A DNA stretch of 64,000 nucleotides from an uncultured Sphingomonas sp. (GCF_913777625.1 NZ_CAJYTI010000010.1:175095-239094); one strand, 5' to 3'. Counted from the first letter of the stretch, positions 27,291 through 35,040 are shown. A program made the numbers and translations. The notes: a model not told the origin generated them from the sequence alone.

Positions 27291-27841
27291 TGCTGGATCA
27301 GGTCCTGAATGAGCACTTCCTTGATCATGCCCGGGCCGAGCGCCTGGGTGGCACGCACCATCAGCTCTTCCTTCAGCCGGAACACCGCCGCCGAGCCGCC
27401 CAGATCCTCGGGGCGCAGCTCGCGCAGGAAGGGCTGATAGGCATCGAGCACCACCGGCAGCTTGTCCTTGAGCGACGCCTCGGTCGCCTTGGGGCCGGGC
27501 ACGAGCATCAGGTGCAGCTTCAGGAACTTCGCCGAGCCGTCGGGCGAGCGCAGGTTCACCGAGACGGTGGGAACGTCGACGAACTTGCCTTCGCCTTCCT
27601 TGCCGCCTTCCTTGCCCTTGGCTTCGCCTTCGCCCTCGCCATGCCCTTCGTCGGCGGCGGCTTCGTCACCATGGCTCTTTTCGGCCTTGGTCGCGCTCTT
27701 GCCGCCCATGAAGAACGCCGCACCGCCGCCGCCCAGCGTAAGCGCGGCCACTGTCGCGGCGCCGATGATGATCAGCTTCTTTTTCTTGTTGGGCGCCGGG
27801 GCCACCTGCGCGCTCTTATCCTCGACGATCTCGGCCGACAT
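27287..27841 (-). CDS. fliL: Flagellar basal-body protein FliL
   Basis: KKKKLIII TM segment, VNLRS...KFLKLHL, FLRELRPEDL GGSA VFRLKEEL, VLIQDLIQQ. Confidence 0.92.
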   Translation of the reverse strand: MSAEIVEDKSAQVAPAPNKKKKLIIIGAATVAALTLGGGGAAFFMGGKSATKAEKSHGDEAAADEGHGEGEGEAKGKEGGKEGEGKFVDVPTVSVNLRSPDGSAKFLKLHLMLVPGPKATEASLKDKLPVVLDAYQPFLRELRPEDLGGSAAVFRLKEELMVRATQALGPGMIKEVLIQDLIQQ

Positions 27842-27897
27842 AGCTTCCCTGGACCTTCCGAAATATCGGCCGCGACGTCCGCACGTCCGATTTCCCT

Positions 27898-27930
27898 CTA
27901 TTATAGAACCGTCACCCGGCAATTTCTGCC
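27898..27930. promoter_or_regulatory. Divergent fliL/flgF control region: palindromic CTATTATAG plus ftr-like box
   Basis: CTATTATAG 27898-27906; GGCAATTTCTGCC 27918-27930. Confidence 0.6.
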
Positions 27931-31786: not shown

Positions 31787-31820
31787 GAGCCCAAGGCCCA
31801 ACCCTGGGGGCCAAAGGCTT

Positions 31821-31862
31821 GAGGGGGTCGGGATGGTTCGCCATCCCGACCCTCTTTTTTTG
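31821..31862 (+). terminator. Intrinsic terminator after flagellin
   Basis: GGGTCGGGATGG-TTCG-CCATCCCGACCC followed by a T run. Confidence 0.9.
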
Positions 31863-31926
31863 TTTGCCGTGAGGGTGCAAGCTATACGCGGCGTTTCTAC
31901 AGGGATCGAGAAGGGGAGAGCCGGCA

Positions 31927-32328
31927 TTGTTTCCGCGCATTCGTGAAATTACCGATGCCTTTGGCGGGCGCCTGCGCGTGAGCGTCGAGGAGCATCCCGC
32001 GGGTGCGCTGGTGGTGCTGGAACGACCCGATCTGAACGGCCGTCCGCGCGTCCTGCTCGATGGATATGGCGTCGACGTGCTGGCCGGCTACATCATGTCG
32101 GCGCGGCTTTCGGTGCCGCAGGGGCTGCCGGAAGAGCATGTCGACGGCACCTTCTCCACGCGCCTCAGTCTCGATCTCGATCCGTCGGCATGCCTCGTGC
32201 TGCGCCAGGGAGGCCTGGAGGCCCTGGAGATCGCGGCGCCCTTCTGGGACCGGCTCTACGCCGAGCTTTCCATCGTTGCCGCCCATGCCCGCGAACTCAC
32301 CCGGCGGGCCGAAGCGCGCGTTCACTGA
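31927..32328 (+). CDS. Hypothetical protein
   Basis: 133-aa ORF, TTG start after GGGGAGAG, coding-like codon use; no family recognised. Confidence 0.7.
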   Translation: MFPRIREITDAFGGRLRVSVEEHPAGALVVLERPDLNGRPRVLLDGYGVDVLAGYIMSARLSVPQGLPEEHVDGTFSTRLSLDLDPSACLVLRQGGLEALEIAAPFWDRLYAELSIVAAHARELTRRAEARVH

Positions 32329-32334
32329 CCCCGG

Positions 32335-32645
32335 CGCGCAGCACGGTTTCCTCGTGCCCGGCGTGTCGTGCGGGGCTCCATCTCTGGAACCCGGGACGCA
32401 GAAGGAAGGGGGGAGGCGGCGCCGCCGGCTGGCGTAGCAGCAACCCGACATGGCGTCCGCTCCGCATCGGGAGGCAGGGCGGGCAGGGATGCAAGGCCGC
32501 GGCGCGGCAGGCCGGCTCGGCCGTTCCCCGAAATGCGAGCGGCAGGCCAGTTGGGGGGAACTGGCCTGCCGCTGTGCCAGGCGGGGGGGGCCCGGCAATT
32601 AGGGGAGAGCGAAGATCGTGAGGGGATCGGAACGTCCTCGCTGCT
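32335..32645 (-). ncRNA. Candidate structured sRNA with C-rich hairpin loops
   Basis: Minus-strand hairpins with C7 loop (32575-32597), C6 loop on a 15-bp perfect stem (32538-32573) and GAGA tetraloop (32373-32392); TATAAC at 32655-32660. Boundaries are guesses. Confidence 0.35.
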
Positions 32646-32758
32646 CCTGCTATTGTTATATCGGAAATCCCGCACGAAGAGAAACGAAACTGGTTCTATC
32701 GGGCTACAGGATTTGTACCTAGGCAGATCCCCTTACGTATCGTTACGGTAGAAGTAAC

Positions 32759-33424
32759 TTACTTGGTGATGCGTAGGATCATGCTCGTGGGGTACTGTGC
32801 TCCGTTCACCGAAATCACCGGGGATCCATTGATCATCTGGACGTCGTCAACCTTGCCGACTGCATTGGCAGTGGTGGTGATCTTTGCGCCCGCGTCCGTC
32901 GTCCCCGTCAGCTGCAGCTGGTAAAGACCGCTGTCCACCTTCTTGCCGGTGCTGGTGGTGCCGTCCCAGCTGAAGTTGCCCGACGTGCCGCTCACCTTCA
33001 GATCGAAGCTGTCGACCTTGCTGCCCTTGTCGTCGAGAATGGTGGCGGTGAGGCCGGAGACCGCGTTGGTCGCGCTCCAGTCCCATTGCGCCGGTGCCGA
33101 TGCGCTGAGCGCCGCCTTGTCGGAATCGAGCCGCACCGGCTGACCGATCACCGCCGAGGTGGTGGTGAGCGAGGTCATGTTGAGGTTCGACAGGATCGAA
33201 TTCAGCGTCGTGTTCTGCTTGATCGACTGTTCTACCTGCGAATACTGGACCAGCTGCTGCGTGTACTGGCTGCTGTCCATGGGATTGGTGGGATCCTGGT
33301 TCTGCAGCTGCGTGGTGAGCAGTTTCAGGAACATGTTGTAGTCGCCGGTGAGCGATGCGGTCGCAGCGCTGGTCGAGCTCTGCGCGGCGCTGGTCGAGCT
33401 GGTGGCGGAAGAAACGAGGGTCAT
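32759..33424 (-). CDS. flgD: Hook capping protein
   Basis: FLKLLTTQLQNQDPTNPMDSSQYTQQLVQYSQVEQ. Confidence 0.96.
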   Translation of the reverse strand: MTLVSSATSSTSAAQSSTSAATASLTGDYNMFLKLLTTQLQNQDPTNPMDSSQYTQQLVQYSQVEQSIKQNTTLNSILSNLNMTSLTTTSAVIGQPVRLDSDKAALSASAPAQWDWSATNAVSGLTATILDDKGSKVDSFDLKVSGTSGNFSWDGTTSTGKKVDSGLYQLQLTGTTDAGAKITTTANAVGKVDDVQMINGSPVISVNGAQYPTSMILRITK

Positions 33425-35031: not shown

Positions 35032-35040
35032 ATTATAGAG
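35032..35040 (-). promoter_or_regulatory. TYCTATAA -10-like motif
   Basis: Minus-strand CTCTATAAT 44 nt upstream of the fliK ATG. Confidence 0.55.

Follow-up and report, generated by a model that had tools for sequence, protein, structure and literature searches.

The flagellar gene flgD and a convergent gene in Sphingomonas leave between them a gap of several hundred nucleotides, which raises the question of whether anything is encoded there and, if so, on which strand and over what extent. The gap lies in a stretch of DNA of 64,000 nucleotides that was analyzed as a whole (referred to here as the window) and that comes from a Sphingomonas genome of the elodea/trueperi/azotifigens group. A first-pass annotation had flagged positions 32335-32660 as a candidate small RNA (sRNA) of about 326 nt. 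Our analyses indicate that a shorter segment, 32530-32648 on the minus strand, is very probably a real, conserved, and so far unannotated sRNA gene. The fuller reading, a small regulatory RNA gene of ~118 nt that is specific to one Sphingomonas clade, is the one we prefer, with a probability of about 0.6. The genes and signals that frame the gap are the following:

31821-31856, strong terminator of the flagellin gene
31927-32328, plus strand, gene for a 133-amino-acid (aa) protein (orf133), lying 3' of the flagellin gene and its strong terminator
32329-32758, intergenic gap of 430 nt between the convergent flgD and 133-aa genes
32759-33424, minus strand, flgD (Pfam FlgD match), the last gene of the fliK-flgD unit
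35032-35039, TCTATAAT box before fliK

Genomic setting of the gap

The gap is genuinely intergenic and noncoding, because the genes on both sides of it are real and the minus-strand open reading frame (ORF) that overlaps one of them is a mirror frame. On the flgD side, the gene upstream of flgD matches the Pfam FliK family. On the other side, no Pfam or NCBIfam family was matched by orf133. Despite the lack of a family, orf133 is, by its pattern of substitutions, a real gene, since 14 relatives show 217, 164, and 735 substitutions at codon positions 1, 2, and 3, respectively. A 233-aa minus-strand ORF that overlaps orf133 was rejected as an artefact, being a mirror frame antisense to it. The ORFs contained within 32329-32758 have no family matches, no conservation, and a mirror-frame-like composition, in agreement with the first-pass view that the gap holds no credible ORF. 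Simple ORF lists are unreliable in this genome, and GC3-based ORF calling was wrong both at fliL and in the frame antisense to orf133. The start of fliL lies at ~27841 (27841-27905, minus strand), ~52 nt past a TCTATAAT box.

Across species, the length of the gap ranges from 397 to 1148 nt. At three loci (L048, L148, and L149), an extra ORF of ~130 aa, convergent with the sRNA, lies between the sRNA and orf133. In relatives, a TCTATAAT box of the flagellar type stands ~30 nt before the TTG start of orf133. The same site upstream of orf133 in the source genome (~31894-31902, plus strand) reads TTCTACAGG, and the promoter of orf133 may therefore have been lost or altered here.

Structure and conservation of the predicted sRNA

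We located the syntenic gaps of 23 loci by way of the 133-aa protein and then aligned them. The alignment revealed a conserved unit on the strand of flgD that consists of a -10 box, hairpin 1, a linker, hairpin 2, and hairpin 3. The parts of this unit are listed here in the direction of transcription, together with a box upstream of it and three motifs from the left part of the gap:

32702-32719, minus strand, upstream box GGTACAAATCCTGTAGCC, 42-64 nt before the -10 box and conserved in both groups of homologues
32655-32660, minus strand, -10 box TATAAC of the sRNA gene, with constant spacing to hairpin 1
32530-32648, minus strand, predicted sRNA of ~118 nt, its 5' end placed by inference ~7 nt past the -10 box
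32604-32647, minus strand, hairpin 1, a long bulged stem (14-17 bp across loci) with an invariant apical loop
32620-32632, minus strand, loop 1, UUCCGAUCCCCUC, 13 nt, the presumed seed
32598-32603, minus strand, C/U-rich linker CCUAAU
32575-32597, minus strand, hairpin 2, UGCCGGGC-C7-GCCUGGCA, with a variable C-rich loop
32538-32573, minus strand, hairpin 3, a terminator-like 15-bp stem with a CCCCCC loop, then CGCAUUU
32401-32416, minus strand, C/U tract CCUCCCCCCUUCCUUC, left part, not conserved
32373-32392, minus strand, GNRA hairpin GGGUUCCA-GAGA-UGGAGCCC, left part, not conserved
32341-32357, minus strand, hairpin GCACG-AGGAAAC-CGUGC, left part, not conserved

Hairpin 1 is the most conserved of the three hairpins and was absent from the structures listed in the first-pass annotation. 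Ten of its 17 modelled pairs have changed on both sides, and 97% of the corresponding alignment cells are paired. The stem that flanks loop 1 covaries while the loop itself stays constant: the last 10 nt of the loop (CGAUCCCCUC) are identical in 25 of 26 hand-aligned homologues, the exception being L047, which is without the G. The predicted probability of being unpaired is 0.7-0.9 at most positions of loop 1 and ~0.3 at one, and the predicted cost of opening the loop is 3.7 kcal/mol. The linker, which is unpaired in all individual folds and reads UUCUCUCCCUUUG in distant relatives, is a possible Hfq site or a possible second pairing site.

All nine modelled pairs of hairpin 2 have changed on both sides. 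Its loop is a run of C5 to C8 in the window's clade, reads CCUCCUCU, CUCCUCCUCCUC, or CCUUCCUCC in distant species, and is not C-rich at two loci (L047 and L048). Hairpin 3 has 15 pairs, eight of them changed on both sides, and across loci its stem keeps a length of 12-15 bp and remains GC-rich. A simple terminator scan did not call hairpin 3, whose U tail in the source genome is only UUU; its canonical terminator form is found at L047 (AUUUUUUU) and at L048. All three loops contain runs of at least four C residues in the window's clade, and the predicted sRNA contains no AUG or GUG.

When each of the 25 unique homologues was folded alone by minimum free energy (MFE), the three hairpins were recovered in every one. 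Because MAFFT alone misaligned hairpin 2, pairing was scored on a structure-guided alignment of 21 sequences that had been fitted to the structure by hand; an Infernal alignment was also made. In the structure-guided alignment, 97.0% of 810 cells are standard pairs (shuffles, 80.1 ± 0.9%), and double changes occur in 27 of the 41 pairs (shuffles, 15.8 ± 1.6). The observed measures of pairing and covariation were reached by none of 500 shuffles, and sliding the 3' partners by 1-3 columns lowered pairing to 31-43%. As a check independent of the hand-fitted alignment, we built a covariance model from six distant homologues only, and this model finds exactly 32531-32648 on the minus strand, at 53.6 bits and an E value of 2e-10. 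Covariation across relatives, which the first-pass annotation had named as a check on its proposal, is thus found in all three stems. The choice of the minus strand as the RNA strand was likewise borne out: across the homologues, there are 57 G-U cells and 7 A-C cells, and the RNA is therefore read from the minus strand.

Extent of the conserved RNA

The segment 32531-32648 (minus strand) has an MFE of -64.4 kcal/mol against -36.1 ± 3.1 kcal/mol for shuffles (z -9.0). For 32329-32530 on the same strand, the z score is +0.48, with 134 of 200 shuffles folding equally well or better, and the gap taken as a whole gives z -3.1 on the minus strand and z -2.5 on the plus strand. Compared with eight relatives, identity is 85-92% over the -10 box and the sRNA, 63-77% over the spacer after flgD, and 38-62% over the left part of the gap (distal to hairpin 3), the length of which varies from 170 to 467 nt. 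BLAST matches, obtained in 13 of 301 genomes of the genus, span only ~32531-32724, and both the BLAST and the covariance-model matches in relatives stop right after hairpin 3. We place the 3' end of the predicted sRNA after hairpin 3 and its CGCAUUU.

The hairpins, the tract, and the TATAAC that the first-pass annotation had named are all present where it had placed them. From the five structures in its list, hairpins 2 and 3 belong, along with the TATAAC, to the conserved element. The other three (C/U tract, GNRA hairpin, and GCACG hairpin) are not conserved and amount to filler of a kind expected by chance in DNA of 70-75% G+C, because the part that holds them has a z score of +0.48, low identity, and variable length and is left out of all BLAST matches. 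What stands of the original proposal is a minus-strand sRNA gene 3' of flgD; what does not is its span of ~326 nt, since the gene takes up only the rightmost third of the flagged span. For annotation, the consequence is that the other 200 nt of the gap should be treated as unconserved.

Distribution among genomes

The element is single copy in its own genome, also when searched with a covariance model (R2, 99 bits), which rules out a repeat element. At least 27 Sphingomonas species carry it, each genome having one copy that always lies between flgD and the convergent 133-aa gene. An exact-pattern scan across 185,579 species, each represented by one genome, returned 38 matches, 25 of them in Sphingomonas. 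All 25 lie directly 3' of flgD on the same strand and, where the contig allowed, are convergent with orf133. The remaining 13 matches belong to unrelated phyla and are without flgD and orf133; no three-hairpin fold was found in the 15 matches that are not named Sphingomonas (these 13 together with L079 and L106).

Wider searches gave a similar result. A family-level pattern scan of 400 genomes returned 11 matches against ~14 in a reversed control, none of them with the fold, and an order-level covariance-model search of 300 genomes found nothing convincing outside Sphingomonas. Two matches in genus g113 were rejected as simple tandem hairpins lacking the loop. Fifteen further genomes of the order carry an alpha-type flgD, and in these the gene is followed by flgE or by unrelated sequence, not by the sRNA.

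Two genomes carry altered copies. One of them (G019) has a diverged sRNA with the loop AACCGAUCCCCUC, and the other (G010; L148, ~1960-2080) has a deletion of ~14 nt that removed part of the 5' arm of hairpin 1 and half of the loop.

A similar element follows a TATAAT box in two Verrucomicrobiaceae metagenome-assembled genomes (L084, 6504-6620, plus strand; L099, 4520-4637, minus strand). It reads GAGCG-UUUCGAUCCCCU-CGCUC, then CUCUCUCUCCUUUG and a C run, and resembles hairpin 1, its loop, and the linker. Our covariance models R1 and R2 do not match these two elements, and the likeness could be due to convergence, transfer, or chance.

Promoter and transcription unit

In 24 of 24 homologous loci, hairpin 1 is preceded at constant spacing by a TATAA box, which in the source genome is the TATAAC at 32655-32660. 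In 9 of 11 distant homologues, the box is CTATAAT, which is of the flagellar type (Y)CTATAAT. In the window's clade, it has the form GCGA/CCGA-TATAAC, conserved in 16 species, and in the source genome it reads GATATAAC, not YCTATAAT; no -35 element is evident for this promoter. TATAA is rare in the 64-kb window, with only 14 occurrences, and 12 of these are on the minus strand. Of the 12, 11 have the form (Y/G)C-TATAA(T/A/G) and lie 30-60 nt before minus-strand ORFs of the flagellar and chemotaxis cluster, the twelfth being the sRNA box, and YCTATAAT occurs 6 times against an expectation of 0.08. The upstream box at 32702-32719 reads CGTATAAATCC at L037, L039, and L149 and CCGTACAAnCACTTAGCGG in the distant group, and it may be either a regulator site or a second promoter or -10-like box. 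A similar GTAAGCACTTAACGG follows a TATAAA box at ~24707 (minus strand).

Distant species also bear on whether the sRNA has a transcription unit of its own. At six loci (L041-L046; S. gei, S. naasensis, S. psychrotolerans, and others), flgD has a canonical U-tract terminator of its own, and ~90 nt past this terminator come a CTATAAT box and then the sRNA. We regard the sRNA as a separate gene because, in these species, the terminator of flgD precedes the box. In the source genome, a terminator scan found no terminator-like site between flgD and the sRNA, and fliK-flgD transcripts therefore probably also end at hairpin 3. According to the model that we propose, the sRNA would be transcribed along with the flagellar genes from its own box and, in the source genome, would probably arise in addition as the 3' end of the fliK-flgD transcript. 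Coexpression with the flagellar genes is plausible by inference, and the chances that the sRNA belongs to the flagellar regulon are about even. That it may be a post-transcriptional arm of that regulon, as the first-pass annotation put it, is a surmise from position and promoter type.

Predicted targets and mechanism

The sRNA would act in trans, its unpaired C-rich loops pairing with G-rich Shine-Dalgarno (SD) regions and blocking the initiation of translation, as in Xanthomonas sX13 and alphaproteobacterial anti-SD sRNAs. We consider it fairly likely that the sRNA acts by its C-rich loops on G-rich ribosome-binding sites in this way. The best candidate for a direct target would be the leader of an SPFH/Band-7 membrane-scaffold gene (C13:60524 in the same genome), an assignment that is tentative and that we regard as somewhat doubtful.

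The SPFH leader ranks first among ~49,000 start windows, at -25.8 kcal/mol (mean, -9.4; standard deviation, 3.1), and is not an energy outlier, the next start-window matches being at -25.6 and -24.3 kcal/mol. The leader GCGAGGGGAGUCGGGGCGU-AUG is predicted to form 7+7 bp with loop 1 around one bulged G, with a net energy of about -9.6 kcal/mol after opening costs. A block within it, UGCGAGGGGAGUCGG, located at 3-20 nt upstream of the AUG, persists between variable flanks in each of the 19 genomes with the sRNA, a count that is confounded by shared ancestry, as the carriers form one clade. Energies at this site range from -21.5 to -26.3 kcal/mol among the 19 carriers, with one at -17.8 kcal/mol. 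In 16 genomes without the sRNA, the SPFH orthologues have other leaders from which the site is absent (-10.9 to -19.5 kcal/mol). The genome with the diverged sRNA (G019) has a near-site in its SPFH leader, and in the genome with the damaged sRNA (G010) the leader site is mutated (GAGUGGAGUCGG). Because the carriers form one clade, the co-occurrence of site and sRNA may go back to a single historical event. Other constraints could also conserve the site, because it lies in a short divergent promoter region and adjoins the palindrome TGCTAGCA. The divergent intergenic region in question is 52 nt long (C13:60470-60523; L111-L129) and holds two blocks, CTATGCTAGCA and UGCGAGGGGAGUCGG, that are specific to the clade of sRNA carriers; the palindrome is part of CTATGCTAGCA, next to the SPFH site.

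Other start-window candidates listed include a GGDEF protein, GalE, PpdK, and a small secreted protein. An MFS transporter (C3:103096), which served as a control candidate with a perfect 10-mer, was rejected, its site being lost even in close relatives. Within the source genome, 9-mers complementary to loop 1 are not enriched at start codons. In the window, loop 1 finds its best non-self match in the flagellin terminator, with the 5' arm of which, UUGAGGGGGUCGGGAUGG (31819-31836, plus strand), it is complementary over 16 bp at -30.8 kcal/mol. Neither a target nor a site of antitermination was accepted here, as the place of this arm is taken in relatives by GGGCCGGG or by unrelated stems, and the match is probably due to chance or specific to the lineage. 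The leader of orf133 was likewise rejected, with a z score of about -1 across species. The flagellar leaders within the window lack conserved complementarity to the sRNA, and none of the flagellar mRNAs came out as a conserved predicted target.

The source genome also encodes two tandem Hfq-like ORFs or domains (C13:1422-1874, minus strand), with 56% and 49% identity to the core of Escherichia coli Hfq.

Alternative explanations

The constant placement of the element directly after flgD, on the flgD strand, would also be expected if it were no more than a structured 3' end to the fliK-flgD mRNA, that is, a terminator or stability element in cis with no function in trans. Hairpins 2 and 3 do resemble tandem terminators, and in the source genome the interval from flgD to hairpin 3 holds no other terminator-like site. 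However, where flgD in distant species has a U-tract terminator of its own, this terminator comes before the element and is followed by the CTATAAT box, and a terminator would leave unexplained an invariant apical loop of 13 nt on a separate covarying stem of 15 bp; we therefore judge a role in cis alone to be unlikely. That same loop is conserved beyond what pairing with a short SD would need, which, along with the lack of enrichment of complementary sites at start codons, could point to an RNA that binds protein or acts as a decoy, its loop recognized by a flagellar RNA-binding protein (e.g., FlbT/FlaF), by Hfq, or by an RNase. This we consider quite improbable, as C-rich apical loops on stable stems are characteristic of pairing sRNAs (sX13 and the cuckoo RNAs among them), the sRNA has no GGA-type CsrA motifs, and a conserved complementary block is present in the SPFH leader.

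The two remaining explanations concern the extent and the nature of the element. The weak U tail after hairpin 3 makes read-through possible, and a transcript of ~326 nt (32335-32660) would then include the C/U tract, the GNRA hairpin, and the GCACG hairpin, all of which do exist; but the distal 200 nt do not exceed shuffles in folding, are poorly conserved and of variable length even among close relatives, and lie beyond the point right after hairpin 3 at which all BLAST and covariance-model matches in relatives end, so that an RNA of this length is very improbable. Least credible of all is that the signal reflects a feature of the DNA, such as a REP- or MITE-like repeat or a bidirectional terminator, or merely chance in GC-rich sequence. 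Although the gap does lie between convergent genes and its plus strand also folds better than shuffles, the covariation exceeds all controls, and both the position and the promoter box are conserved; the excess of G-U over A-C cells and the single copy in the genome already contradict such a reading.

Implications

Very few sRNAs have been characterized from the Sphingomonadales; in the literature, we found only SuhB of Sphingopyxis as a characterized example, and we found no flagellar-locus sRNA for the Alphaproteobacteria. With its clear boundaries, strong covariation, and one sharply conserved seed, the family described here is directly testable in culturable strains, and its carriers include the culturable and industrially used S. 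elodea (gellan) and S. trueperi/azotifigens, among them the strains S. elodea ATCC 31461, S. azotifigens NBRC 15497, and S. trueperi DSM 7225. If it is coexpressed with the hook genes, the sRNA would bring a post-transcriptional level of control to an unusual flagellar regulon with CTATAAT-type promoters, and the SPFH leader would offer a concrete sRNA-target pair to test by compensatory mutation.

A more far-reaching proposal, which we put forward as a speculation that is rather unlikely to hold in full, is that this is the first sRNA of an alphaproteobacterial flagellar regulon, made at the hook stage with fliK-flgD from a lineage-specific CTATAAT-type promoter, and that its invariant loop silences the SPFH/Band-7 mRNA and other mRNAs with GGGG-type ribosome-binding sites. 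If this were true, flagellar assembly would be coupled to membrane organization, and the sRNA and the SPFH site would have arisen together, diverged together (as in G019), and decayed together (as in G010).

Comparison with known RNA families

Searches against Rfam 15 gave no gathering-level match for the window or for 14 homologous loci, and nothing relevant up to an E value of 10. The best subthreshold match was to ar7 (RF02342), at 19.3 bits against a gathering score of 60, and the sX13 model gave no match even at an E value of 10. The first-pass annotation had pointed to AbcR, the cuckoo RNAs, and CcnA as models. Membership in these families is not supported: Rfam gave no match, and, as regards the cuckoo RNAs, the loops do not carry the motif and the element is single copy. 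The features shared with sRNAs are of a more generic kind. A conserved -10 box and a terminator-like last hairpin in a noncoding intergenic region are traits of trans-encoded sRNAs, and compensatory changes in the stems together with an invariant, accessible, single-stranded loop are traits of base-pairing sRNAs.

In CcnA and GsrN of Caulobacter, an accessible C-rich loop serves as the seed on G-rich leaders, and their promoters depend on CtrA and EcfG. The Sphingomonas sRNA differs from both in promoter, locus, and sequence and gave no model match.

The closest likeness in design is to sX13 of Xanthomonas, a three-stem RNA with a C-rich apical loop on each stem that acts as a repressor of mRNAs carrying G-rich motifs at their ribosome-binding sites (Schmidtke et al. 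2013, PMC3771888). Both sX13 and the predicted Sphingomonas sRNA carry C-rich apical loops. Neither sX13 nor the polA-locus sRNAs (for example, ar7/Smr7C of Alphaproteobacteria, RF02342) have sequence or model homology to the sRNA at the flgD locus. The polA-locus sRNAs are found at polA, whereas the sRNA described here follows flgD and has one loop with a longer, specific motif of 13 nt.

Cuckoo RNAs (ar14/RSs0680/CcsR) consist of two to four adjacent hairpins with CCUCCUCCC in every loop and occur in several copies per genome in Rhizobiales and Rhodobacterales (Reinkensmeier and Giegerich 2015, PMC4615179). Like this family and AbcR (ar15), the Sphingomonas sRNA has adjacent hairpins with covarying stems and conserved, anti-SD-like C/U-rich loops, and in some Sphingomonas species the loop of hairpin 2 reads CCUCCUCU or CUCCUCCUCCUC, which comes near to CCUCCUCCC. 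In contrast to the cuckoo RNAs, its loops are UUCCGAUCCCCUC, CCCCCCC, and CCCCCC, it is single copy, and it is found only in Sphingomonas.

In location, the closest counterparts are CJnc230/FlmE of Campylobacter jejuni and the sigma-28-dependent sRNAs of E. coli. CJnc230 lies downstream of flgE and has been shown experimentally to be both processed from the flgE mRNA and transcribed from its own promoter (PMC11187230), and FliX, FlgO, and MotR of E. coli are sigma-28-dependent sRNAs derived from untranslated regions (PMC10578931). CJnc230 and the Sphingomonas sRNA each follow a hook-stage flagellar gene, and by analogy the latter probably also has two sources, the flagellar mRNA upstream of it and a promoter of its own. 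Known flagellar-locus sRNAs target flgM and flagellar or ribosomal mRNAs (PMC11187230, PMC10578931), whereas the Sphingomonas sRNA, which is unrelated to them in sequence and phylum, is without a conserved predicted flagellar target. Taken together, these comparisons make the sRNA downstream of flgD, which is absent from Rfam, a new family of a familiar kind.
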